A stretch of 25,326 nt of DNA. Source: a virus. Taxonomy: Duplodnaviria; Heunggongvirae; Uroviricota; Caudoviricetes. The position numbers were made by a program, and so were the translations under genes. The notes under the pieces are model-generated. The model did no database searches and was not told where the DNA came from. It saw only the letters and a list, made by a program, of their open reading frames with translations. Position 1 is the first letter of the stretch, and every line of letters starts with the position of its first letter. Positions 2,508 through 24,080 of the stretch are shown here, piece after piece. The stretch lies in IMG/VR virus record IMGVR_UViG_2565956724_000002; one strand, given 5' to 3'.

Positions 2508-3539
2508 CTAATTGCCATCTTCCAGCAGGCGCACCATTGCCCCTGTTTCACTATCCAGGTTACGGATATAGTTCATGACAATATTTACGTTGGTCCAGCC
2601 ACCAGCTTGCATGATCTCCGGTATTGAAACTCCGGCACGGGCCATATCTCGCGCGGCTCCGACACGGGCACTGTGTCCAGACCAGGCCAGGTACCTCTGT
2701 CCAGAGTCATCCTTAGCCCCGTAAATCAATCGGTGAGTTGCTTCAAAAATCCCTTCTAGGGCGCGAGTTGATAGCTGGCTGGTGGGTGATGGCGAGGCAA
2801 CACCATTTTTTCTGACCCGGCAAAACAGGTAGTTATTCGGATCATCAGCCACACCAGAGACAGAAATCCATCGCTCGACCAGTTTAGTTACCCCCAGGCT
2901 AAGTGCCTTCTCTACACCTGCGGTGCTAACCAGCGTTTTCGTTCTGCCAATATGGATTAACATTCTCCCACCGTCAGTACGTGAGATATCTTTAACCCTG
3001 ATCCTGGCAATTTCGGCTATACGTAACAGGGTGTTATAAGCAATCCCCAGAAATGCCAGATTACGTATATCCTGGCAGCGATCGCTATTTTCCATGAGTG
3101 AACGAACCTGGTCGAAATCAGTGCGTTCGAACGCTAGTGCCTGTTTTGCACGTTCACCGGCATCAACGTTTTCTTTTCGGATCCGCCGCATAACCAGTGA
3201 AACAGCATTGCTATCACTTGGTCGCGGCAGCCCGGACCGACGATGAAGCATGTTTAGCTGGCCCAAATGTTGCTGGATAGTTTTTACTGCCAGACCGCGC
3301 GCCTGAAGATATAGAAGATAATCGCGAACATCTTCAGGTTCTGCGGGAAACCATTTCCGGTTATTCAACTTGCACCATGCCGCCCACGACCGGCAAACGG
3401 ACAGAAGCATTTTCCAGGTATGCTCAGAAAACGCCTGGCGATCCCTGAACATGTCCATCAGGTTCTTGCGAACCTCATCACTCGTTGCATCGACCGGTAA
3501 TGCAGGCAAATTTTGGTGTACGGTCAGTAAATTGGACAT
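2508..3539 (-). CDS. cre: Cre site-specific tyrosine recombinase, 343 aa
   Basis: The translation MSNLLTVHQNLPALPVDATSDEVRKNLMDMFRDRQAFSEHTWKMLLSVCRSW... is essentially P1 Cre end to end. ATG confirmed at 3539-3537. Confidence 0.97.
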   Translation of the reverse strand: MSNLLTVHQNLPALPVDATSDEVRKNLMDMFRDRQAFSEHTWKMLLSVCRSWAAWCKLNNRKWFPAEPEDVRDYLLYLQARGLAVKTIQQHLGQLNMLHRRSGLPRPSDSNAVSLVMRRIRKENVDAGERAKQALAFERTDFDQVRSLMENSDRCQDIRNLAFLGIAYNTLLRIAEIARIRVKDISRTDGGRMLIHIGRTKTLVSTAGVEKALSLGVTKLVERWISVSGVADDPNNYLFCRVRKNGVASPSPTSQLSTRALEGIFEATHRLIYGAKDDSGQRYLAWSGHSARVGAARDMARAGVSIPEIMQAGGWTNVNIVMNYIRNLDSETGAMVRLLEDGN

Positions 3540-4034: not shown

Positions 4035-4051
4035 AGAATTATTAGAGCAAT
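4035..4051 (-). promoter_or_regulatory. C1 operator-like site (Op99-like) in immC
   Basis: The reverse complement, ATTGCTCTAATAATTCT, matches the consensus at 15 of 17. Confidence 0.6.
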
Positions 4052-4111
4052 AAATTTTGAGAGAAAAATCCCACTCCACCAGCTAAAAACTGGATTGTTT
4101 TTCATAGTTGT

Positions 4112-4138
4112 TTGACAATTGCTCTAATAAATTATAGT
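4112..4138 (+). promoter_or_regulatory. Putative coi/c1 promoter with an overlapping C1 operator (Op99a-like)
   Basis: TTGACA at 4112-4117 directly abuts ATTGCTCTAATAAATTA (4118-4134, 16 of 17 to consensus), with TATAGT at 4133-4138 as a possible -10. Confidence 0.65.
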
Positions 4139-4372
4139 TTTGCCGCCGTTTCGTAATACGACTTTGGATTCACTATTTAATGTGTCTTCAGCGTTGTAGA
4201 GCGGCTCAGAAGGAAATGAGCAAACAGGGAAACCTTATACAACGGCATTACAGCTATGCATTGCTCATCTTACACACAGCGCAATGTTGTTAGATTACCC
4301 CAGCATGGATCATGGGTGAAACAGTAGGTCAGAGCTTCAGGCTCTGTGTTGTCAATACAGTGAGACATAATT

Positions 4373-4582
4373 ATGGCTTTCATTCAACCAACCATCGACG
4401 ACGTTAGACATTGCTCTAACGCTTTATCTGTAGACCCTGCCGAAACCGACGCTGCCCGCGCCATTGCTGAACACTACTCAAAGATATCCAATCAGGAGTA
4501 CCGCATCACCCAAGACGACCTGGATGACCTCACTGACACAATCGAATATCTCATGGCAACTAACCAGTTAGACTCACAATAA
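4373..4582 (+). CDS. coi: Coi, C1 inactivator, 69 aa
   Basis: 69-aa ORF directly upstream of c1, the length and position of P1 coi. Sequence MAFIQPTIDDVRHCSNALSVDPAETD... Confidence 0.85.
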   Translation: MAFIQPTIDDVRHCSNALSVDPAETDAARAIAEHYSKISNQEYRITQDDLDDLTDTIEYLMATNQLDSQ

Positions 4583-4692
4583 ATGCACTAATAAATCTAT
4601 TATTTTTGTTTGATCCCTCTATAATATAGGTCAGTAATGACCGGTTTTCTCAGCCGGGCGTTATTGACCATGTCAATTCTGGAGGAGGATCA

Positions 4693-5544
4693 ATGATAAA
4701 TTATGTCTACGGCGAACAACTGTACCAGGAGTTCGTCAGCTTCAGGGATCTCTTTCTAAAAAAAGCTGTTGCACGCGCCCAACACGTTGATACAGCCAGC
4801 GACGGTCGTCCTGTACGCCCGGTTGTCGTTCTACCGTTCAAAGAAACTGACAGCATTCAGGCTGAAATTGATAAATGGACTTTAATGGCGCGGGAACTGG
4901 AACAGTACCCAGACCTCAATATCCCAAAGACTATTTTATATCCAGTGCCTAACATCCTTCGCGGTGTGCGTAAGGTTACAACTTATCAGACAGAAGCTGT
5001 GAACAGCGTCAACATGACCGCTGGCCGCATTATTCATCTGATTGATAAGGACATTCGCATCCAAAAAAGCGCGGGGATCAATGAGCACAGTGCGAAATAC
5101 ATAGAGAACCTGGAAGCAACAAAAGAGCTAATGAAGCAGTACCCGGAGGATGAAAAATTCCGTATGCGCGTACACGGCTTTAGCGAAACAATGCTGCGCG
5201 TCCACTACATTTCCAGTAGCCCTAACTACAATGATGGTAAATCAGTTAGTTACCATGTGCCACTGTGTGGCGTGTTTATCTGCGATGAAACTCTCCGTGA
5301 TGGAATTATCATCAACGGTGAATTCGAAAAAGCAAAATTTAGCCTTTATGACTCCATAGAACCGATCATCTGCGACCGCTGGCCGCAAGCAAAAATATAT
5401 CGCCTGGCAGATATTGAAAATGTAAAAAAACAAATTGCCATCACTCGCGAAGAGAAAAAGGTTAAGTCAGCCGCATCAGTTACGCGCAGCCGTAAAACCA
5501 AGAAGGGGCAGCCAGTAAACGACAACCCCGAAAGCGCGCAATAA
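4693..5544 (+). CDS. c1: C1 repressor of lysis, 283 aa
   Basis: MINYVYGEQLYQEFVSFRDLFLKKAVARAQ... matches P1 C1 in sequence and length. Strong RBS GGAGGAGG upstream of the ATG at 4693. Confidence 0.95.
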   Translation: MINYVYGEQLYQEFVSFRDLFLKKAVARAQHVDTASDGRPVRPVVVLPFKETDSIQAEIDKWTLMARELEQYPDLNIPKTILYPVPNILRGVRKVTTYQTEAVNSVNMTAGRIIHLIDKDIRIQKSAGINEHSAKYIENLEATKELMKQYPEDEKFRMRVHGFSETMLRVHYISSSPNYNDGKSVSYHVPLCGVFICDETLRDGIIINGEFEKAKFSLYDSIEPIICDRWPQAKIYRLADIENVKKQIAITREEKKVKSAASVTRSRKTKKGQPVNDNPESAQ

Positions 5545-5549
5545 ATTAT

Positions 5550-5567
5550 GCCCGGCATCAACCGGGC
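5550..5567. terminator. Hairpin between the convergent c1 and antirepressor-like genes (possible bidirectional terminator)
   Basis: Stem GCCCGG / CCGGGC with loop CATCAA, flanked by moderately U-rich sequence on both strands. Confidence 0.45.
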
Positions 5568-5576
5568 ATTCTTCCA

Positions 5577-6695
5577 TTATTCAGCCGCCACCGGTTTTAA
5601 CAAGCCAGCATCGAGCAGTTTACGCGTCAACCACTGCTGGCCTTTACCCGTTAATTGAGGCGTCAACCGTATCTGGTAGCCATCTTCATCATCCAGCACC
5701 ACTTCTTTCACCGTGAAATACCCCGCGTTGATGTACTGCTGGAACGGCACATTTTTACGTCCACCGGACGCTATCAGGATGCCGTTCTCCCGTAACCAGA
5801 CAAACAGCGCGTTTTGCTTAAGTCCAACAACCTTTGCAAAATTCCCAATCAGGATCCCTTTAGCTACTGATACCCGGTCGGCAAAATCGACTTTAGGAGC
5901 GGCGGCCACCAGCTGCTGATTTAGCTGGTGGGCTTTCTGTTCCAGAAGTTGCTTTTGTTCAGCCAGTTCGGCAGCCAGGCGTAGGGCTTCAGGAAGCGTC
6001 TGGGGGATTGCGATCGGTTGCTGTTCTTTTTGTCGGAAGTAGCTGTCTTCCAGTTTTTCAAAGAATGCCCATGCCTGATCGGTTTCGAGCATTTTAGCGT
6101 GGCGGGCTGCGCCGCGTTCTGTCCAGAGGGTGAGTGAGCGAACATTGCGAGCAATTTTTACAGAGTAGTTTAAAGCTACTCTGTGCTTCAACTCGCGCAA
6201 TGATTCTCCTTCAACTTTGAAAAAGTGCTTCCCTTCAACAAAGCGTACTTTGTTCTCATGATGATTTTGGCGAATACGGATTGTTTCTGTCCCATACCCT
6301 CTAGCAAGAGTCTCGGTTGTCACTACACGCACTCCCTGCCATTCCAGAACGGGAATTTCATCAGACTGATTCTGAACAACCACCAGCTCCGATTCCTGAA
6401 CTGAAGGTGCATGAATTTTTTCTGATTTAACGTTAGTTGCTTTCATTCTGTGTGCCTCCTTGCGTGATTCGGCTGCGGCGGTTGCGTAATTCAGATGCCC
6501 CTGTTCGAGCAGGTATTCGCGGATATCAGACAGCAGGATGCGGTGAACTGCGTTCTTGTCCTTTCTCCGGTAAAGTTGTTTGGTGATCATGAAGTAGTTG
6601 GCAATAACGCCCGGTATATCCCTAGTACTGATACAGGCAGTGTGCTGTTCAATTGCCTCGATCATCTCTTCACGGGTAACTAATGACGTTCTCAT
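5577..6695 (-). CDS. Phage antirepressor-like protein (ORF6N/Bro-N-like central region, KilA-C-like C-terminus), 372 aa
   Basis: The central segment VLEWQGVRVVTTETLARGYGTETIRIRQNHHENKVRFVEGKHFFKVEGESL and the C-terminal segment ...LFVWLRENGILIASGGRKNVPFQQYINAGYFTVKEV... resemble these domain families from memory. The ATG overlaps the upstream ORF's stop (ATGA). Confidence 0.6.
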   Translation of the reverse strand: MRTSLVTREEMIEAIEQHTACISTRDIPGVIANYFMITKQLYRRKDKNAVHRILLSDIREYLLEQGHLNYATAAAESRKEAHRMKATNVKSEKIHAPSVQESELVVVQNQSDEIPVLEWQGVRVVTTETLARGYGTETIRIRQNHHENKVRFVEGKHFFKVEGESLRELKHRVALNYSVKIARNVRSLTLWTERGAARHAKMLETDQAWAFFEKLEDSYFRQKEQQPIAIPQTLPEALRLAAELAEQKQLLEQKAHQLNQQLVAAAPKVDFADRVSVAKGILIGNFAKVVGLKQNALFVWLRENGILIASGGRKNVPFQQYINAGYFTVKEVVLDDEDGYQIRLTPQLTGKGQQWLTRKLLDAGLLKPVAAE

Positions 6696-6913
6696 AGTCC
6701 CTCCTGAGCAGAAGCGTTAACAGGGAGGCACCAGTAACTGAGAGAATTGCGTGAATCAGTGGAAAAACGGGCAGAGAAAATACATGGGGCGTCAGGAAGC
6801 TGAGAATGGGCCTCATCTTCTGTCGGTGCAATAACGAAGTGATAGTGACGTTTTTGGCAGGAGTAAAAGCGCCAGATAAATTCAGGATGAATTGGGGTAG
6901 GGACAGTAGCCAT
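6692..6913 (-). CDS. Small hypothetical protein (73 aa), translationally coupled to the antirepressor-like gene
   Basis: AAAGGAGG lies about 8 nt upstream of the ATG at 6913. The stop overlaps the downstream start by 4 nt. Confidence 0.5.
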   Translation of the reverse strand: MATVPTPIHPEFIWRFYSCQKRHYHFVIAPTEDEAHSQLPDAPCIFSARFSTDSRNSLSYWCLPVNASAQEGL

Positions 6914-7098
6914 AATGGCAGCCTCCTTTGACTAAGTTAAGGAGCTACCGCGTGAGGTCTCAATCTCAATGGCGGTAGCACTGACTGGGTTGAGACTACC
7001 GGCGTCAAAGGGAACCGGCCTGCCTTTCGGCAGCCCAGCCAGCACTACCATTGATTTCGGAGCTAAACGCTACGTATGGCTGTGCGATGGCATGACAC

Positions 7099-7120
7099 AA
7101 AAAAAGACGCTTTCGGCGTC
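7099..7120 (-). terminator. Intrinsic terminator, minus strand (pacB 3' end and/or attenuator in the leader of the downstream operon)
   Basis: Stem GACGC / GCGTC (7106-7110, 7116-7120) with loop CGAAA on the minus strand, followed by U7 (plus-strand A7 at 7099-7105). Confidence 0.6.
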
Positions 7121-7244
7121 TGTGTCGCCTTTGACATTATCCGGGGTCTCAATCCCGGCACCCGTTTTAATGAGGTGCCTGATAAGCATAAACCGAAAAT
7201 GCCTCAAGGCGCAAGAGGTCAGGTTCAATGTAACATCGGCAGTC

Positions 7245-7261
7245 AAAAAACACAATTTATT
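7245..7261 (-). promoter_or_regulatory. C1 operator-like site just downstream of the pacB stop
   Basis: The reverse complement, CTTGCTCTAATAAATTG, matches the consensus at 15 of 17. Confidence 0.6.
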
Positions 7262-8463
7262 AGAGCAAGTGTTTATTCATTAAGCCATGCCAGAGCTTCA
7301 TCAACCTGCGCTTCGTCTTCGACGCTAAGCACTTCGTCCTGGGGAACATAATCCGCCAGCATAGCGAAACAATATGTATCCCAATGGTCTGGTGAGTGCA
7401 GGTTGAGTTTTTTCTTCATATCCTCCTTACTCATCACCTTCCATTGACCTGCGGAGTTAATCCCTACAGGGATTTTCGACGCTTCCTCAATAGTTTCATT
7501 ACCCTTATCCAGTCTCATACGACCAGATTTTACGGCCTCTGCGGCTTGAACGTTGGCATAAGCACGTTTATCAAAGTACAGGCTCTTATCTTCACGGCTA
7601 TGCATCTTTTTACCCCAGCGTATACGCTGTACGGTAATACCATAATACTCGTACATCAGATCCGCCGTTGCTTTACCCAGGCCATCGCCGTCTATCGCTA
7701 TGGTGATATTGGGGAATCGCTCAGGATTACATTCTGCGAAAATTTTGGCGGCAAGCTGCGTTTCTGTAACGTCTGTGTATTCCAGCATTCGATAGTTGAT
7801 TACACGGCGTTTATTTCGCTGGCCGGACACCATCATGATATTGATAAAGGACTTATCCCGTCCTGTACCACCAGCAACGTCCACACATGCAAGCCAGCCC
7901 CATCCTTTGGCAATCTTGACTTTCCGCCGCGTCGCACGTTCAACCTCATCACGTCCAAGAAGGAAGCCGTCCTGTAATTTAGGGAATAGGCCGCGTACCT
8001 TAATCATGTACATAGGGTTATCACGCCCGCCGTACTCCGCCAGCTTCATTTTGATAAATTCTGACGTTACCAGCGGTGATTCCTCACTGTTAAGCGTGAT
8101 CGCCGTATAAACGCCATCTGGGTTACCAGGACGCTTGGCCAGTTTATGGTGAGTATCGTAGAAATAGCCGCTTGGGCGTGTAGGCTGTGACAGTAATAAG
8201 ATGCGGTTATCCTGTCCGGTAAGAGCACCGGTGATGATACCGAAAGCTCTATCACTGACACCGGAGGCTTCATCGATAATATACAGAAGATGATCTGCGT
8301 GTTCACCGGCGAGAACTTCTTCACTTCCCAGACGAAAGCCCTTCGGTACTACAGTCCATACACCTTTACCAGTAGACTGGCCCCCTGAATCTCCAGACAA
8401 CCAGTATCACTTATTTAAGTGATAGTCTTAATACTAGTTTTTAGACTAGTCATTGGAGAGCAG

Positions 8464-8829
8464 ATGATTGATGTCTTAGGACCGGAGAAACGCAGACGGC
8501 GTACCACACAGGAAAAGATCGCAATTGTTCAGCAGAGTTTTGAACCGGGGATGACGGTCTCCCTCGTTGCCCGGCAACATGGTGTAGCAGCCAGCCAGTT
8601 ATTTCTCTGGCGTAAGCAATACCAGGAAGGAAGTCTTACTGCTGTCGCCGCCGGAGAACAGGTTGTTCCTGCCTCTGAACTTGCTGCCGCCATGAAGCAG
8701 ATTAAAGAACTCCAGCGCCTGCTCGGCAAGAAAACGATGGAAAATGAACTCCTCAAAGAAGCCGTTGAATATGGACGGGCAAAAAAGTGGATAGCGCACG
8801 CGCCCTTATTGCCCGGGGATGGGGAGTAA
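8464..8829 (+). CDS. insC: IS2 OrfA (InsC)
   Basis: [56 protein letters not shown]... Confidence 0.93.
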
Positions 8830-9692
8830 GCTTAGTCAGCCGTTGTCTCCGGGTGTCGCGTGCGCAGTTGCACGTCATTCTCAGACGAACCGATGACTGG
8901 ATGGATGGCCGCCGCAGTCGTCACACTGATGATACGGATGTGCTTCTCCGTATACACCATGTTATCGGAGAGCTGCCCACGTATGGTTATCGTCGGGTAT
9001 GGGCGCTGCTTCGCAGACAGGCAGAACTTGATGGTATGCCTGCGATCAATGCCAAACGTGTTTACCGGATCATGCGCCAGAATGCGCTGTTGCTTGAGCG
9101 AAAACCTGCTGTACCGCCATCGAAACGGGCACATACAGGCAGAGTGGCTGTGAAAGAAAGTAATCAGCGATGGTGCTCTGACGGGTTCGAGTTCCGCTGT
9201 GATAACGGAGAAAAACTGCGAGTCACGTTCGCGCTGGACTGCTGTGACCGTGAGGCACTGCACTGGGCGGTCACTACGGGCGGCTTCAACAGTGAAACAG
9301 TACAGGACGTCATGCTGGGAGCGGTGGAACGCCGCTTCGGCAACGAGCTTCCGGCGTCTCCAGTAGAGTGGCTGACGGATAATGGTTCATGCTACCGGGC
9401 TAATGAAACACGGCAGTTTGCCCGGATGTTGGGGCTTGAACCGAAGAGCACGGCGGTGCGGAGTCCGGAGAGTAACGGCATAGCAGAGAGCTTCGTGAAA
9501 ACGATAAAGCGTGACTACATCAGTGTCATGCCCAAACCAGACGGGTTAACGGCAGCAAAGAACCTTGCAGAGGCGTTCGAGCATTATAACGAATGGCATC
9601 CGCATAGTGCACTGGGTTATCGCTCGCCACGGGAATATCTACGGCAGCAAGCCAGTAATGGGTTAAGTGATAACAGGTGTCTGGAAATATAG
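8787..9692 (+). CDS. insD: IS2 OrfB (InsD) transposase
   Basis: [34 protein letters not shown]... contains a DDE-type integrase core and overlaps insC in the usual IS3-family arrangement. Confidence 0.93.
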
Positions 9693-10092
9693 GGGCAAAT
9701 CCAACCAGTAACCTCATAGAAAGCGGTTTCTGTCAGAACAAAATAATCAGCAAGCCATGGAAAACGGCTGGTGGCAGTAGCCCAGTTTATCTTGATGTAC
9801 TTGAATATACCGGTCATTACCTGCTGAATTTTGTTCGCAACGATAATGGCGCGGGCACCGGGATACATGATTATGAACAACATGATCATGATAGAAGTCA
9901 TGTCTGATTTCCCGGTACCGTGACCAGACGAAACAGATGTCTTGCTACCCTGTTCCTGCACAGACTCAATAATCAGATCCTGCTGCCAGGTAGGTGTTTT
10001 GCCGAACAAAACATCAGCGGCCGCAATCCAGTCATAACGATATAGCGCCACCAGCTCGCGCCAACGTGGATCCGTTACGCAACTTCTGGCCA

Positions 10093-10794: not shown

Positions 10795-10811
10795 CAATAC
10801 ATTAGAGCAAT
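10795..10811 (-). promoter_or_regulatory. C1 operator-like site upstream of the small terminase-like gene
   Basis: The reverse complement, ATTGCTCTAATGTATTG, has the core ATTGCTCTAAT (14 of 17). Confidence 0.4.
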
Positions 10812-12845: not shown

Positions 12846-13463
12846 ATGAAAATGACAAGTATTCAACAACGTGCAGAGCTTCATCGTCAAATCTGGCAAA
12901 TTGCTAACGATGTCAGGGGTTCGGTCGATGGATGGGATTTTAAGCAATACGTTCTGGGCGCACTTTTCTACCGTTTTATCAGCGAAAATTTTTCCAGCTA
13001 TATTGAAGCCGGTGATGACAGCATCTGTTATGCGAAACTGGATGACAGCGTAATTACTGATGACATTAAAGACGATGCCATCAAAACTAAAGGCTACTTC
13101 ATCTACCCCAGTCAGCTTTTCTGCAACGTAGCGGCGAAAGCAAATACCAATGACAGACTGAATGCAGATTTAAACAGCATCTTCGTTGCTATCGAAAGTT
13201 CTGCTTACGGTTATCCTTCAGAAGCTGACATCAAAGGTTTGTTTGCTGATTTCGATACCACCAGTAACCGCCTGGGTAACACCGTTAAAGATAAAAATGC
13301 CCGCCTGGCTGCGGTTCTGAAAGGGGTTGAAGGGTTAAAACTTGGTGACTTCAACGAACATCAGATTGACCTGTTCGGTGATGCCTATGAGTTCCTGATT
13401 TCTAACTATGCGGCAAATGCCGGTAAGTCAGGCGGTGAGTTCTTTACACCGCAGCACGTCTCC
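12846..13463 (+). pseudogene. hsdM: Type I restriction-modification methyltransferase HsdM, N-terminal fragment only (type IC / EcoR124-like by recollection), cut off by IS1
   Basis: [44 protein letters not shown]... ending ...[16 protein letters not shown], which reaches the HsdM FxTP motif. The ORF then runs straight into the IS1 terminus at 13464. Confidence 0.7.
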
Positions 13464-13518
13464 GGTGATGTTGCCAACTTACTGATTTAGTGTATGATGG
13501 TGTTTTTGAGGTGCTCCA

Positions 13519-15679: not shown

Positions 15680-16645
15680 TTATTCCCCAGCAGACATTTT
15701 CCCAATGATTTTTTTTATTGCTTCGTCAATTTCAGTTTGCACTTCAGACGGGAGTCTGGAGAACTCGTAGGCGACAACCCGTTTTTTCGGATCGGACTTC
15801 TTTCGAGCATATTGGCGACGGTCAGAGAAGTCTCGCAGCTTCTCAACCACCACAGATTTAACCGGCGCGGGCTTCAGGCTTTTGCTTTCCGCTTTGAAGA
15901 TAGCCAGTATCTTCGCTTTATCCTCTTTCGCGCCCTCAGTCTCTGCAATTCGTTCGCGCACCGTATCAACCAGCTCTTCAATAGGCACGCTTTTAGCGTT
16001 GGCATCCTCGGAGATCTGGAGCAGTAACTGGTAATCTGGCAGGGCGAGATCGCTGGCAACAGGGAAGACAGCAATCATCTCATCCGGCACCGCTGCCGCC
16101 TGGAACGCGCGCGTAACTTTAGCCTTTGAAATGTTCTCAGCGCGGGCGATCTCTTCTTTGGTCATGCTCTTACCATACATAACCTCGAAGCGTTTACCCA
16201 GTTCGCGCAGGGTGTGTTCGCGGGCTGTCTGGATATCAATGGCCAGCTGGCGTGCATCCGCCAGGCTGATCTCATCTTTCGTCACCAGAATCTCAAATTT
16301 CGTTTCATTGAAGATACACGCAGCGCGGCGACGTGATCCGTCCAATACCTCAATGCGCTCCCCAACCATACGACCGATAGCCGGGAAGAACTGTTGCAAT
16401 TTAATGGTGCGGGAAATATCGCTTACCGACTCAGGGGTGAGCAGAGACTGATCGCGGCCGTTAACTGCCGGGTCAACGAACGTGCGCGACTCAATCTCAC
16501 CACTCAGCACAACGGTAAGCAAAAATTTAGCCTGGCGGCCAGATTTTAGGGTAAAGGTTTTGGTGCCTTCACTGCCTTCAAGCATGCGAGCAAACTCGGA
16601 GCTATTCTTGCCCAGCACTCGTCCACGGGAAACTATTTTTTTCAT
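15680..16645 (-). CDS. parB: ParB partition protein (P1/P7 family, divergent from P1)
   Basis: Conserved ...RTFVDPAVNGRDQSLLTP...QQFFPAIG...ILDGSRRRAA..., immediately downstream of parA and overlapping it by 4 nt. Confidence 0.85.
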   Translation of the reverse strand: MKKIVSRGRVLGKNSSEFARMLEGSEGTKTFTLKSGRQAKFLLTVVLSGEIESRTFVDPAVNGRDQSLLTPESVSDISRTIKLQQFFPAIGRMVGERIEVLDGSRRRAACIFNETKFEILVTKDEISLADARQLAIDIQTAREHTLRELGKRFEVMYGKSMTKEEIARAENISKAKVTRAFQAAAVPDEMIAVFPVASDLALPDYQLLLQISEDANAKSVPIEELVDTVRERIAETEGAKEDKAKILAIFKAESKSLKPAPVKSVVVEKLRDFSDRRQYARKKSDPKKRVVAYEFSRLPSEVQTEIDEAIKKIIGKMSAGE

Positions 16646-17853
16646 GCCGCCTCACCCCTAACAAACTCAATTCGATCAAACACAGCCTTAGTGAAACGCT
16701 CGGCCTCGGTTCGTGCCTTCTTCAGCGCCTCTGCACTGCCTGGATACGATTGCGGGTTGGCACTGATTACGGTGTCGAAAGACTCGCCGCATCGCTCAAA
16801 TCCATCCAGACGAGGCAGAGAAGAGTCCAGAATGTTGCTGGCGTAAACCTCACGCGCAAGGCTGTGTGATGTCTCGTGATCGCGCTTGCCGGTCATCTTC
16901 GACATAAAACCAATGCTGGCGCTTAAACGCGGTTCTACGCCTTCCTCCTCCAGTTGCTCCAGCATTTCTGGCAGACGGGTGAGATATTTCAGTGTTGAGT
17001 GGAAGTCAACCTGGGCTGGTGGGGTAGGGGTAAGCAGCAAATCGCTGGCCGCCAGACCGTTGAGCAGGAACGGATCCAGGTGTGGACCGGTATCAATAAA
17101 GATAAAGTCATAATCATCCGCAACACGATCAATGATATTGCGTCGAAGGATTTCGTACTGATTTTGTCCGGGAAGATGCTCTTCAACCAGCTCTTTCCAT
17201 TGGCTGGCAACAAAGCCATCGTCGATAGAGGCTGGAATCACGTCTACGCCAGGAACGATGGTCGGACGAATCACCTCTTTGCGTAGCGTCTCCGCGTCCA
17301 AGTCGTTCAGCATCGCCTGCGCGGCGGTTTCCAGGATGGAACCAATACTGTGAGTATGGTCGAGGAACATTGTGCTGGATGCCTGAGGGTCAAGGTCAAT
17401 TACCAGAATGCGCAGATCGTGACGCAGTAAATCCTGATGCACACGCAGAGCGTGCGCCAACGTGACTGTGGAAACCGTTTTGGATACGCCACCCTTCAGG
17501 TTTACGACAAAAATAACGTAAGGCGATTTGTGAATGTCGCGATATTTTGGGATCTTACGGTGGGCATAGATATCAATGACGTTCTGGATGGTCAGCGCGT
17601 ACTGTTCAACGTTACCGACCTGTTTCTTGTTGAACTGGTACCCATCATCTTCCATCTCTTTGATGGCCTGCTCCACAATGCGGCGGCTCAGCTTCGGCAA
17701 CTTTGCCACAGCGTTACGAGTGAACGTCTGATAATACTCGGTCTGATTGAACTCTTTGCGCTGATCTTCAATATCCTGACTCATGGCCTTAAGTAATGCG
17801 CTTGCACGAAGAGCTATGGTGCCGACACCGCCGTAATCGCGTTTCATCATCAT
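16642..17853 (-). CDS. parA: ParA partition ATPase (type Ia, with N-terminal HTH extension)
   Basis: Walker A VVNLKGGVSKTVSTVTLAH, and the C-terminal ...LPRLDGFERCGESFDTVISANP...KAVFDRIEF is almost as in P1 ParA. The N-terminus differs from P1. Confidence 0.9.
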   Translation of the reverse strand: MMMKRDYGGVGTIALRASALLKAMSQDIEDQRKEFNQTEYYQTFTRNAVAKLPKLSRRIVEQAIKEMEDDGYQFNKKQVGNVEQYALTIQNVIDIYAHRKIPKYRDIHKSPYVIFVVNLKGGVSKTVSTVTLAHALRVHQDLLRHDLRILVIDLDPQASSTMFLDHTHSIGSILETAAQAMLNDLDAETLRKEVIRPTIVPGVDVIPASIDDGFVASQWKELVEEHLPGQNQYEILRRNIIDRVADDYDFIFIDTGPHLDPFLLNGLAASDLLLTPTPPAQVDFHSTLKYLTRLPEMLEQLEEEGVEPRLSASIGFMSKMTGKRDHETSHSLAREVYASNILDSSLPRLDGFERCGESFDTVISANPQSYPGSAEALKKARTEAERFTKAVFDRIEFVRGEAA

Positions 17854-17961
17854 CTCCTTATCATTTCGTATGAGTGAATTGTACGTTTGATTCTGCTACG
17901 TGCAACTTATTTTGATTCGTGCGTAAATTATTGCACGTAAAGAAATGGCGATGAGGCTATT

Positions 17962-18249
17962 AGATGTGTGCTGGAGGGATGATGCAGGACCAGAATGTGC
18001 GATAGAGGGAAGTCGCATTGAATTATGTGTTGTGGAGGGATCGCTGGTATCAAATATGTGCGCTGAAGGGAAAGATAGAAGATTAGATGTGCGCTGGAGG
18101 GAAACTTGGATGGTTAGATGTGTGCTGGAGGGAATGTCTGGGCAAACTGCGTGGCGCAACCCTCCAGCGCACACCAAAAACAGGAAAATGGGCAGGCATT
18201 CCCGGCAGCGCACATTTTTCAAATGCAGCTGCCCTCCAGCACACACTTA
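17962..18249. repeat. incA: incA iteron array (about nine 19-bp RepA-binding repeats, both orientations)
   Basis: Repeats of the GATGTGTGCTGGAGGGAAA type, e.g. 17962-17981, 18022-18041, 18085-18104, 18115-18135, and inverted copies CCCTCCAGCGCACAC and GCCCTCCAGCACACAC at 18160-18249. Confidence 0.85.
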
Positions 18250-19107
18250 TTCGGGAAGTTTCAGCTTTGGATTGCGAGAATGGACGATTACAAAACTTTC
18301 CCGGCCTTTCTTCTCAATTGAACAGTCGAGATAGCCAATTGTTTTAAGCTGTTCTATCGCTTTCTTAATGATACGGTTTTGCTCGCCAACAGCTGACTGC
18401 AAAGCCAGGCGCTCACGGATTCGCGCGAACGATAGCGGCAACGGGTTCTGCGGAAGGCTTTCGATGAAAGTGTAAATGGCTTGTGCAGCTTCTTTCTTCG
18501 GAAGGGCACGCAAGGCGTGGTGTTGCAACAGAACGCGATAATCAAGCTGGAACAGCTCCCAGAGCTTCGAATCGGCCTCCAGCTCTATCAGATCAAGGTC
18601 AGCATCAAAACGCCCGACCTTCAGCAGACCAGTCTGATAGCCGCCTTTAGCATCTTTTCCGCGCTTAAAAGCGATACCCTTGTTACGCAAGCGTCCAAGT
18701 GATTCATGAATGGTTAAACGCAGTTTCGCATCCAGACGTTTTGAGGGGAAACCACAGGCTTTAGCGAACTCCTGAAACGATAACTGGATGGTGTTTGAAG
18801 ACAAGCCGTATTTGCTGAACGCGTAGATGACACCGATCCACGTTTTGAAATCAGTATCCATATCGAGTCGAGGACCGGTGATTTTAATATCATCGTAACC
18901 CTCGGCTTTAGCTATCTCCAGCTGGGAAAACGCTTTGGTGGCATCAATCTCTTTACTTTCTCCTTTGCTCTTTGATGGCTTCGGAACGAATACCCCCAAG
19001 CGCATCAACGCTACAGGCTGCACAGTGTTGTTTGAATTAACTGTTAGTTCTTTTGCCTTACTTTCAATGTCTGCGTAAAGAATATCGGAGATAAATGATT
19101 GATTCAT
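18247..19107 (-). CDS. repA: RepA replication initiator of the plasmid R replicon, 286 aa
   Basis: MNQSFISDILYADIESKAKELTVNSNNTVQPVALMRLGVFVPKP... matches P1 RepA. It is flanked by iteron arrays on both sides. Confidence 0.95.
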   Translation of the reverse strand: MNQSFISDILYADIESKAKELTVNSNNTVQPVALMRLGVFVPKPSKSKGESKEIDATKAFSQLEIAKAEGYDDIKITGPRLDMDTDFKTWIGVIYAFSKYGLSSNTIQLSFQEFAKACGFPSKRLDAKLRLTIHESLGRLRNKGIAFKRGKDAKGGYQTGLLKVGRFDADLDLIELEADSKLWELFQLDYRVLLQHHALRALPKKEAAQAIYTFIESLPQNPLPLSFARIRERLALQSAVGEQNRIIKKAIEQLKTIGYLDCSIEKKGRESFVIVHSRNPKLKLPE

Positions 19108-21183: not shown

Positions 21184-21567
21184 ATGCGCGCTAAAGAAAG
21201 ACTTCCCCGGAAACACTATTCCCCTGAATTCAAAATGGAACTGGTCAGGCTGGCTCTTGAAGAAGAAGGCAGTATTGCCGCACTGGCCCGGAAACATGAC
21301 GTCAATGATAACCTGCTCTTTAAATGGATAAGGCTCTGGCAGCGTGAAGGGCGGGTCTGTCGGCCCCGAAAAAACTCATCGTCGCTTCCTGCCCTGATAC
21401 CCGTGCAGCTTCAGGCGGGCTCTTCTCTCCCAACCTTCGAACTACCATCCTGCTCTCCTCCCGCTACCTGCCACATAAAATGTCGGGGAGGAGAAATAAC
21501 ACTGACTCATCCCTCTGCTGAACTCATGAGCACTGTCCTGCGCGAACTGATGCGGGGGCCGGTATGA
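21184..21567 (+). CDS. tnpA: IS66-family accessory protein TnpA (orf1)
   Basis: First ORF of the IS66-type triplet; HTH-like N-terminus. Confidence 0.75.
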   Translation: MRAKERLPRKHYSPEFKMELVRLALEEEGSIAALARKHDVNDNLLFKWIRLWQREGRVCRPRKNSSSLPALIPVQLQAGSSLPTFELPSCSPPATCHIKCRGGEITLTHPSAELMSTVLRELMRGPV

Positions 21568-21911
21568 TAAATCTTCCCGCAGGCACAAAAATCTGGCTGG
21601 TTGCCGGTATCACCGATATGCGCAACGGCTTCAATGGCCTCGCCGCAAAGGTGCAGACCGCGCTGAAAGATGACCCGATGTCCGGCCACGTCTTCATCTT
21701 CCGGGGACGCAGCGGCAGTCAGGTAAAACTGCTCTGGTCCACCGGCGATGGTCTGTGCCTGCTGACAAAGCGACTGGAACGTGGTCGCTTCGCCTGGCCC
21801 TCAGCCCGCGATGGCAAAGTGTTCCTGACGCCGGCGCAACTGGCGATGCTGATGGAAGGTATCGACTGGCGACAGCCAAAGCGGTTACTGACATCCCTGA
21901 CCATGTTGTAG
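21564..21911 (+). CDS. tnpB: IS66-family TnpB (orf2)
   Basis: MINLPAGTKIWLVAGITDMRNGFNGLAAKVQTALKDDPMSGHVFIFRGRSGSQVKLLWS... is the typical IS66 Orf2 sequence. Overlaps tnpA by 4 nt. Confidence 0.85.
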   Translation: MINLPAGTKIWLVAGITDMRNGFNGLAAKVQTALKDDPMSGHVFIFRGRSGSQVKLLWSTGDGLCLLTKRLERGRFAWPSARDGKVFLTPAQLAMLMEGIDWRQPKRLLTSLTML

Positions 21912-21960
21912 CGCTCTTTATCCTGGTTGTCGCAGAATAAGCCTGGTAAAATACAGGCTT

Positions 21961-23496
21961 ATGAACGATACCTCTTCTGACGACATCCTTCTGCTGAAAC
22001 AGCGCCTGGCCGAACAGGAAGCGTTGATCCACGCCCTGCAGGAAAAGCTGAGCAACCGGGAACGCGAAATAGACCATCTGCAGGCGCAACTGGATAAGCT
22101 GCGCCGGATGAACTTCGGCAGTCGTTCCGAAAAGGTATCCCGCCGTATCGCGCAAATGGAAGCTGACCTGAACCTGCTGCAGCAGGAAAGCGATACGCTG
22201 ACCGGCCGGGTGGATGACCCGGCAGTGCAGCGCCCGCTGCGTCAGACCCGCACCCGCAAACCGTTCCCTGAGTCACTCCCACGGGATGAGAAGCGGCTGC
22301 TGCCGACTGAGCCGTGTTGCCCGGAGTGCGGTGGTTCGCTGAGTTACCTGGGTGAGGATGCCGCCGAACAGCTGGAGCTGATGCGCAGCGCCTTCCGGGT
22401 TATCCGGACAGTCCGTGAAAAGCATGCCTGCCGTCGGTGCGATCGCATCGTTCAGGCCCCGGCTCCTTCGCGCCCCATCGAACGGGGGATCGCCGGACCG
22501 GGGCTGCTGGCCCGAGTGCTGACCTCAAAGTATGCAGAGCACACACCGCTGTATCGCCAGTCGGAGATCTATGCCCGCCAGGGTGTAGTGTTGAGTCGTT
22601 CTGTACTGTCGGGCTGGGTGGATGCGTGTTGTCGTCTGCTGGCACCGCTGGATGAAGCCCTTCAGCACTATGTCCTGACCGACGGCAAACTCCATGCTGA
22701 CGATACGCCTGTCCCGGTGCTGTTGCCGGGCAATAAGAAGACGAAGACCGGGCGCTTATGGACGTACGTTCGAGACGACCGCAACGCCGGATCAGCGCTG
22801 GCCCCCGCAGTGTGGTTCGCTTACAGCCCGGACAGAAAAGGTATCCACCCTCAGACCCATCTTGCAGGCTTCAGTGGCGTACTGCAGGCTGATGCCTACG
22901 CCGGGTTCAACGAGCTCTACCGCGACGGCCATATAAAGGAAGCCGCGTGCTGGGCCCATGCCCGCCGAAAAATCCACGATGTTCACGTCCGTACCCCGTC
23001 AGTCCTGACGGAGGAGGCGCTGAAACGGATCGGCGAGCTGTATGCCATCGAGTCGGAGATCAGAGGTAAAAGAGCAGAGGAACGGCAGGCAGTCCGGCAC
23101 CAAAAAGTGCTGCCGCTGCTGGCGTCACTGGAGGGGTGGCTGCGGGAGAAACAGAAAACCCTCTCAAGGCACTCAGAACTGGCGAAGGCGTTCGGGTATG
23201 CGCTGAACCAGTGGCCGGCGCTGATCCGCTATGCAGAAGATGGCTGGGTGGAGGTGGATAATAACATTGCCGAAAACGCCCTACGACGGGTCAGTCTGGG
23301 GAGAAAAAACTGGCTGTTCTTCGGCTCGGATCATGGTGGTGAGCGCGGTGCGTCACTGTACAGTCTTATCGGGACGTGCAAATTAAACGGCGTGGATCCG
23401 GAACGCTATCTGCATTATGTACTTGATGTCATCGCCGACTGGCCTGTGAACCGGGTGGGTGCTCTGCTCCCGTGGCGGGTTACTCTGCCTGCCTGA
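21961..23496 (+). CDS. tnpC: IS66-family transposase TnpC (511 aa)
   Basis: N-terminal coiled coil, a CxxC...CxxC zinc motif (CCPECG...CRRCD) and a DDE region, as in IS66 transposases. Confidence 0.85.
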   Translation: MNDTSSDDILLLKQRLAEQEALIHALQEKLSNREREIDHLQAQLDKLRRMNFGSRSEKVSRRIAQMEADLNLLQQESDTLTGRVDDPAVQRPLRQTRTRKPFPESLPRDEKRLLPTEPCCPECGGSLSYLGEDAAEQLELMRSAFRVIRTVREKHACRRCDRIVQAPAPSRPIERGIAGPGLLARVLTSKYAEHTPLYRQSEIYARQGVVLSRSVLSGWVDACCRLLAPLDEALQHYVLTDGKLHADDTPVPVLLPGNKKTKTGRLWTYVRDDRNAGSALAPAVWFAYSPDRKGIHPQTHLAGFSGVLQADAYAGFNELYRDGHIKEAACWAHARRKIHDVHVRTPSVLTEEALKRIGELYAIESEIRGKRAEERQAVRHQKVLPLLASLEGWLREKQKTLSRHSELAKAFGYALNQWPALIRYAEDGWVEVDNNIAENALRRVSLGRKNWLFFGSDHGGERGASLYSLIGTCKLNGVDPERYLHYVLDVIADWPVNRVGALLPWRVTLPA

Positions 23497-24063: not shown

Positions 24064-24080
24064 ATTGCTCTAATAAATAT
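24064..24080 (+). promoter_or_regulatory. C1 operator-like site upstream of the uhr/hrdC-like genes
   Basis: ATTGCTCTAATAAATAT matches the consensus at 16 of 17. Confidence 0.6.

Follow-up and report, generated by a model that had tools for sequence, protein, structure and literature searches.

Antirepressor cassettes controlled by antisense RNA

In phages P1 and P7 the antirepressor genes belong to immI, which lies in the context sim-immI-kilA-repL and is read in the order operator, -35 element, second promoter, a1/b1 sites, c4, a2/b2 sites, icd and ant1/2. The P1 c4/icd/ant mechanism is reportedly the work of the Schuster laboratory. P1 and P7 are an experimentally heteroimmune pair, and processing of the 5' end of c4-type RNA by RNase P is established for P1 and P4. 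Here, we describe a locus of this type in IMG/VR virus record IMGVR_UViG_2565956724_000002, a stretch of 25,326 nucleotides (the window in what follows) that represents a P1-like plasmid prophage. The 1.73 kb between the c1 and pacB stop codons of the window (5545-7272) are exactly filled by a minus-strand cassette, which is an immI paralogue and an ordinary member of a known system rather than a new kind of module. We assign a probability of roughly 0.8 to the reading that this segment constitutes the whole of an antirepressor cassette of the P1 immI type, placed at a second locus and working by the switch mechanism proposed below.

A feature-by-feature comparison with the P1 annotation revealed the same order of elements, the same c4 RNA fold, two pairs of c4 target sites of which the downstream one lies over the icd ribosome-binding site, a 73-codon Icd whose gene overlaps ant in ATGA, an ant2 start behind AAGGAGG and homologous Ant ends. 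Every testable defining feature of P1 immI was present except genomic position: the cassette is located between pacB and c1, and the sim-immI-kilA-repL context was not found. Several parts also differ in sequence. The leader belongs to the isrK family of Rfam in the window and to the c4-a1b1 family in P1, the two families being equivalent in position and in the kind of sites that they bear. The a and b sites are UUGACAG and GUUAGUGA in P1 but UUGAGAC and GUCAAAGG in the window, the central Ant domain of the window is ORF6N, and the second promoter of the window is weaker.

Two other systems are related through their RNAs. In the P4 immunity region (seqA-CI RNA-seqC), a processed c4-like RNA likewise pairs with sites on either side of it, and the CI region is 75% identical to the c4 region of the window over 140 nt. 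However, this pairing terminates transcription of the P4 replication operon, and P4 has neither icd nor ant. The second system is isrK-orf45(STnc1160)-anrP of Gifsy-1 in Salmonella, which we compared from its published description. The leaders of Gifsy-1 and of the window are members of one Rfam family. In Gifsy-1, read-through of the leader terminator yields a processed small RNA complementary to the leader, a small open reading frame (ORF) is translationally coupled to the antirepressor, and the leader forms cis pairs with the RNA that follows it (PMC4825925). Such an a1/b1-type cis arrangement was demonstrated experimentally for Gifsy-1 isrK by Hershko-Shalev et al. 2016, who regarded IsrK as structurally homologous to P4 SeqA and found that IsrK supplied in trans raised anrP translation 139-fold (PMC4825925). 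Hfq binding and trans-activation by a short RNA are known only for Salmonella IsrK (PMC4825925). The differences are that the coupled orf45 lies on the STnc1160 region itself, whereas a separate icd follows c4 in the window, that no C1 operator is described for Gifsy-1 in that account, and that the mechanism as published gives more weight to trans-activation by the short RNA than to c4-type repression.

A further close relative is the orf83-orf82 locus of phage D6. An isrK-type leader and c4 are present there (93.6% identity to the window over 328 nt), with a sites of UUGAGAC and an icd directly after them. It differs in its b sites (GCAAAAGG), in lacking a C1-type operator upstream, and in its downstream antirepressor, which is an unrelated Rha-type protein (27% identical). 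D6 contains two c4-icd loci, orf19 with a P1-type leader and orf83 with an isrK-type leader, each followed by a different, non-KilAC antirepressor-like gene. A second c4-icd region has been noted in D6-like plasmid prophages (PMC6799933).

Occupation of the pacB-c1 site itself has been recorded before. An insertion there received a one-sentence mention for pTZ20_1P (Venturini et al. 2019, PMC6906374), and RCS47 (FO818745) carries an annotated 'ant' (EC725RCS47_p0110) between pacB and c1, with no c4, isrK-like RNA or icd annotated in that interval. GenBank records describe parts of the insertion as 'ant' in RCS47 and as 'Icd-like', 'KilAC' and 'ash family' where the NCBI Prokaryotic Genome Annotation Pipeline (PGAP) was used. 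In the literature searched we found no description of RNA genes, an operator, an allele series or a two-cassette arrangement at the c1-pacB locus, and neither the c4 nor the isrK-like RNA gene was annotated there in any record inspected. An identical gene pair at this place in P1 or P7 was not found, but a near-identical pair is annotated here in RCS47 and in hundreds of PGAP-annotated plasmids, and the function of the homologous icd-ant1/2 genes is known from P1 immI; together these largely remove the novelty implied by the initial annotation.

Architecture of the cassette

In the direction of transcription, the cassette consists of a C1 operator, two candidate promoters, an isrK-family leader with its terminator, c4, icd, and ant1 with a nested in-frame ant2. 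The operator-like site, CTTGCTCTAATAAATTG (7253-7269, minus strand), begins 4 nt past the pacB stop codon and matches 15 of the 17 positions of the consensus ATTGCTCTAATAAATTT, both mismatches being terminal. A near-consensus operator had been proposed upstream of the gene pair at 7245-7261; the site exists, but its coordinates are shifted by 8 nt and reach beyond the end that had been given. The match at 7253-7269 is not due to chance: seven sites with three or fewer mismatches to the C1 operator were found in the window, compared with 0.04 expected. Its orientation and its position relative to the downstream -35 element are those of P1 Oc4/Op51.

This operator overlaps the -35 element of a candidate promoter, TTGTGT-17-TACATT (7227-7255, minus strand), as Op51 overlaps P51a in P1. 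The candidate was read from the sequence against the P1 annotation and is the positional analogue of P2c4/P51a (TTGTAT-17-TATCTT); its -10 element is kept in related cassettes. A second candidate, TTGCGC-18-TATGCT (7185-7214, minus strand), also read from the sequence, corresponds by position to P1c4/P51b. Its predicted start, near 7178, coincides with model position 1 of isrK, and the TTGCGC-18-TATxxT geometry is retained in other alleles and in D6 orf83, where the surrounding sequence is different. Both promoters are thus proposed from positional homology with P1 and from conservation, not from a promoter scan.

The leader matched the isrK family over the whole model (RF01394; 7100-7178, minus strand; model positions 1-77 of 77) with 60.2 bits (gathering score 50, E = 8.3e-11). 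It folds as three hairpins, and its 3' hairpin is the intrinsic terminator (7098-7121, minus strand), with a stem at 7121-7105 and a T-run to 7098. A terminator near 7099-7120 had been recognized in the initial annotation, which described it as followed by a leader of ~190 nt. Both the terminator and a small terminated RNA held up on analysis, but the leader is not empty, and c4 and its four target sites had been overlooked. The c4 antisense RNA gene (6968-7055, minus strand) matched RF01695 over its full length (75.4 bits, gathering score 45, E = 2.6e-13), and alignment with the 77-nt P1 c4 placed the mature RNA at approximately 7049-6971. In the predicted minimum free energy fold of the 284-nt leader, the c4 loops were engaged in cis by a1 and b1 (z = -5.9).

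A 39-codon ORF (6935-7051, minus strand) overlaps the c4 RNA gene and scored 28.3 bits against Pfam Phage_ASH (cut-off 26). PGAP calls this ORF an 'ash family protein' in hundreds of plasmids, and c4 was unannotated in every such record inspected; in an old P4 record, a 'put. ash gene' is similarly entered where the CI RNA is encoded. Much of what is called the ASH protein family may therefore be a conserved RNA gene read as protein. Caution is warranted here, as the small orf45 of Gifsy-1, which follows IsrK and lies on the STnc1160 region, was reported to be translated (PMC4825925). Another ORF of 104 aa on the plus strand (6969-7283), antisense to c4 and isrK, was set aside as probably spurious.

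The first gene after c4, icd (6692-6913, minus strand, 73 codons), encodes a protein equal in length to P1 Icd and 71% identical to it, which matched NCBIfam NF033153 (phage_ICD_like; 46.3 bits, cut-off 25) and phrog_1426 over its full length. Its stop codon overlaps the start codon of ant as ATGA, an arrangement conserved with P1 from which translational coupling of the two genes is predicted. As had been noted from the ORFs, the pair is convergent with c1, and the coordinates of both genes were confirmed. The ant1-like gene (5577-6695, minus strand) has 372 codons, and its product matched phrog_63, 'anti-repressor Ant', over its full length (E = 6.6e-131). The profile searches that had been suggested for the two proteins also bore out the ORF6N and KilA-C regions, which were located at residues 116-202 (ORF6N, PF10543; 70.1 bits, cut-off 27.8) and 260-361 (ANT/KilAC, PF03374; 107.8 bits, cut-off 25.3).

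The remaining region of about 100 aa at the N-terminus had been noticed and left unassigned; it proved to be the Ant1-specific N-terminus (residues 1-84), which ends at the conserved ant2 start. This nested, in-frame ant2-like frame (5577-6446, minus strand) starts at Met84 (ATG at 6444-6446) behind the Shine-Dalgarno sequence AAGGAGG (6455-6461), and both elements are conserved, in nearly the same nucleotides, with the annotated ant2 starts of P1 and P7. An Ant2 protein initiated at this internal Met84 is predicted. Relative to P1 Ant1, the protein is a three-part mosaic: the N-terminal 84 residues are identical at 53 of 84 positions, the C-terminal 137 residues at 124 of 137 (~90%), and the centre, containing ORF6N, at only 30 of 123, which is effectively unrelated. 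In P1 Ant1, Pfam identified no domain in the central part. By its sequence, the protein is an antirepressor of the Ant1/Ant2 type.

Between the ant and c1 stop codons, a GC-rich hairpin was found in the sequence (5548-5569, assigned to neither strand). It is likely a bidirectional terminator that closes the cassette.

Co-variation of c4 with its target sites

The recognition elements of c4 are b' (CCUUUGAC, 7004-7011) and a' (GUCUCAA, 6990-6996), and each is matched on both sides, all on the minus strand. Upstream, within the isrK-like RNA, are a1 (UUGAGAC, 7146-7152), which lies in the loop of the second hairpin, and b1 (GUCAAAGG, 7128-7135). Downstream are a2 (UUGAGAC, 6957-6963) and b2 (GUCAAAGG, 6925-6932), the latter overlapping the icd Shine-Dalgarno sequence AAGGAGG (6922-6928). 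The two a sites (7 nt) and the two b sites (8 nt) are exact complements of a' and b', respectively.

We aligned six cassettes with isrK-type leaders (from the window, vB_EcoM-673R5, pTX376-2, pCREC-532_2, a D6-like plasmid and D6 orf83). They represent five allele combinations, and only a few independent types therefore underlie the comparison. Standard pairs filled 100% of the 90 cells for a1:a'/b1:b' and likewise for a':a2/b':b2, and changes on both sides had occurred in 7 of the 15 pairs. When the partner was slid by 1-3 columns as a control, only 22-56% of cells were paired. P1, P7 and D6 orf19, compared by eye and by script, displayed three-way co-variation of the same kind with letters of their own. 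In a joint alignment of the P1-type and isrK-type leaders the recognition elements were 1-2 columns out of register between the lineages, which limited formal pair counting to the six isrK-type sequences. These comparisons are strong evidence that pairing of c4 with its targets is the selected function.

The same pairs provide a measure of specificity. Of 15 positions, all 15 are paired between a c4 and its cognate targets, and 12 between P1 and P7. The corresponding values for the window allele are 10-11 with P1, 7-8 with P7, and 10-12 with the other allele found at the same site. Since the a and b sequences of the window are unlike those of both P1 and P7, the cassette would be an independent immunity or anti-immunity determinant with its own specificity, and its c4 is predicted to be distinct in specificity from those of both phages. 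All four combinations of a (GAGAC or GGAAC) with b (GUCAAAGG or GCAAAAGG) exist, and a third allele was found at the same site.

Distribution and mosaicism

As the initial annotation suspected for P1, the module is absent from this position in P1 and P7. It is also absent from SJ46 and phiW39; in all four genomes only the c1 and pacB flanks matched, and in P1 the two stop codons are 24 bp apart. RCS47, JL22 and vB_EcoM-673R5 contained the cassette at the c1-pacB site in addition to a canonical c4-icd-ant1/2-kilA region elsewhere. Among the plasmids of PLSDB, the c1-ant junction was covered in 407 and the empty P1-type junction in 315, counts that are sensitive to the megablast coverage thresholds. 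The laboratory phages P1 and P7 are atypical at c1-pacB; by these counts, a second c4-icd-ant cassette is present there in over half of the P1-like plasmids that have been sequenced. The regulatory region was matched in 421 of 5426 complete Escherichia coli genomes, at 439 plasmid and 17 chromosomal places. More distant relatives of the leader and c4 were present in Stx phages, phiP27, APSE-1 and P4.

Several alleles share this cassette backbone. The c4 allele of the window was matched at 99% or higher identity in 51 plasmids and the allele of vB_EcoM-673R5 in 103, and other alleles occurred in approximately 290. Plasmid pCREC-532_2 (NZ_CP024832.1, 40501-42159) possessed a sister allele, an isrK-type c4-icd-ant cassette with a further a/b combination, directly before kilA-repL. 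This is the canonical immI position; the cassette type is therefore not confined to a single location, and the two leader lineages can replace each other in immI.

Recombination is also evident within the cassette. The regulatory region of the window is 99.2% identical to that of RCS47, whereas the RCS47 Ant is 89.5% identical to that of the window and diverges from it in a stretch of the ORF6N domain (residues ~127-190). Conversely, the window Ant is identical at 371 of 372 residues to the Ant of AR_0372, which carries a different c4 allele. Judged from these identities, the window cassette is a recombinant of an RCS47-like regulatory part and an AR_0372-like Ant.

The ant gene was not intact in all relatives. 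It is frameshifted near residue 197 in vB_EcoM-673R5 and near residue 325 in plasmid A of E. coli H15, and PGAP flagged it as 'frameshifted' in pTX376-2, although sequencing errors may account for some of these frameshifts. The c4 gene, its target sites and icd are intact in all three, and Ant may often be lost while the RNA part of the immunity persists.

Proposed switch and alternative explanations

In the mechanism that we propose, C1 bound at 7253-7269 would shut the promoter overlapped by the operator, and a second, weaker promoter would start transcription at ~7178. Most transcripts would end at the 7105-7121 terminator, giving an RNA of ~80 nt that displays a1 and b1, and the read-through RNA would carry c4, to be excised with RNase P making its 5' end, by analogy with P1 and P4. 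Pairing of c4 b' and a' with b2 and a2 would then occlude the icd ribosome-binding site; with icd untranslated, Rho-dependent termination would follow as in P1 and no Ant would be made. If c4 became limiting, icd would be translated and ant1/ant2 expressed by translational coupling. This could happen on entry into a cell without a matching c4, or when an excess of the a1/b1 leader titrates c4, a decoy role for which the titration behaviour of IsrK in Gifsy-1 is a model (PMC4825925). The Ant complex would subsequently inactivate C1, as is established for P1 Ant. Of the roles offered in the initial annotation, an extra C1-controlled antirepressor and a small RNA plus attenuated operon come closest to this scheme; anti-defence cargo found no support.

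Several observations weigh against the reading as a C1-directed immI switch. The steps beyond sequence complementarity are drawn by analogy with P1, P4 and Gifsy-1. A consensus promoter scan of 5400-7400 found no minus-strand promoter upstream of the leader, and each candidate promoter agrees with the consensus at 7 of 12 positions, which equals the annotated P51a of P1 and is weaker than P51b. The central ORF6N domain is unrelated to P1 Ant1, so that binding of C1 is not guaranteed. The frameshifts of ant in several close relatives suggest that Ant is often dispensable. Finally, the element in the window is packaging-defective, as described below, which makes a role in anti-immunity during infection impossible for this copy; it can only act within a defective plasmid prophage.

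Some of these observations could be accommodated if the RNA were the selected part, with c4, perhaps together with Icd, maintained in order to silence ant cassettes with matching sites in P1-like elements that enter the cell or already reside there, while ant, dispensable or harmful, decays. We consider this unlikely, though it deserves to be taken seriously. It would account for the three relatives in which ant is frameshifted beside intact c4, targets and icd, and in an element without packaging genes derepression could only harm the host. On the other hand, ant is intact in the window, RCS47 and AR_0372, the ATGA coupling has been retained, as have the Shine-Dalgarno sequence and start codon of ant2, some of the frameshifts may not be real, and a c4 without a cognate ant in the population would have nothing to act on. 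A different emphasis, which appears less probable still, would make the isrK-like RNA the main actor, as a stress-induced trans-activator of its own read-through mRNA, with the ORF6N-swapped Ant aimed at a repressor other than C1, for example that of a co-resident prophage. The isrK match above the gathering score, the predicted formation by the leader of the cis structure described for Gifsy-1 (PMC4825925), the presence of the same leader type in Stx phages, phiP27 and APSE-1 and the divergent centre of Ant are all consistent with such a module. Yet the C1 operator occupies a P1-like position, both ends of Ant resemble those of P1 Ant1 (the C-terminal one at 90% identity), and the cassette occurs almost only on P1-like plasmids beside c1 (439 plasmid versus 17 chromosomal places). 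In addition, an ORF6N-containing Ant (299 of 363 residues identical) is found in pCREC-532_2 at the canonical immI position before kilA-repL, which makes the domain swap compatible with an immI context.

A cargo operon, anti-defence or unrelated, that merely resembles antirepressors would fit a c1-pacB interval that varies among P1-like genomes, some of which have an insertion there and some of which have none. It is very improbable, however, as each part of the cassette, including the RNA genes and their covarying targets, has a one-to-one counterpart in P1 immI and none is left unexplained. An immI-type cassette at a second locus remains the preferred reading.

This reading can be extended, tentatively, and with odds that we would put somewhat below even, to the view that phage-plasmids of the P1 type in nature operate a pair of RNA-gated antirepressor switches that are orthogonal to each other, in which the c1-pacB cassette is a mobile heteroimmunity or anti-immunity determinant with combinatorially reshuffled a and b sites and the isrK-type leader is a c4 sponge that sets the switching threshold. 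If this is true, a lysogen must hold every matching c4 'key' to be immune, and the mechanisms of P1 c4, P4 CI and Gifsy-1 IsrK fall into one scheme. Models of immunity and induction with a single immI may mispredict which phage-plasmids exclude or induce each other, a point relevant to how P1-like elements with resistance genes, such as RCS47, are spread. The cassette alleles also constitute a natural series of compensatory mutants for antisense RNA specificity. The known principle is unchanged by the cassette, and its importance is accordingly modest.

Genomic context of the window

The cassette is flanked by c1 (4693-5544, plus strand), whose product is identical to P1 C1 at 281 of 283 residues, and by the 3' part of pacB (7273-8400, minus strand). 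The pacB gene (7273-8418) is broken after 375 codons by an IS2-type insertion sequence of the IS3 family (8419-9700), and the same pacB::IS junction was present in plasmid A of E. coli H15. Neither PLSDB nor the complete E. coli genomes contained an exact match to the replicon, the best being of the pUTAK-22.3 type (98.8%) and H15 plasmid A (97.7%). With pacB cut and with pacA and the pac site missing from the element, the window represents a packaging-defective P1-like plasmid.

Other P1-type genes in the window included cre (2508-3539, minus strand), ref and coi (4373-4582, plus strand). The remainder contained parB, parA and repA (15680-19107), a truncated hsdM (12846-13490, plus strand) that retains its N-terminal domain plus 40 residues at the start of the methylase domain, and an element of the IS66 family (21184-23496, plus strand), indicating that the backbone is heavily rearranged. 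Six C1 operator-like sites were identified besides that of the cassette (1997-2013, 4035-4051, 4118-4134, 4582-4598, 10795-10811 and 24064-24080). Those at 4035-4598 correspond to the immC operators of P1, the one at 10795-10811 is found shortly after the stop codon of a DUF968 (pdcB-like) gene, and the site at 24064-24080 has a single mismatch.

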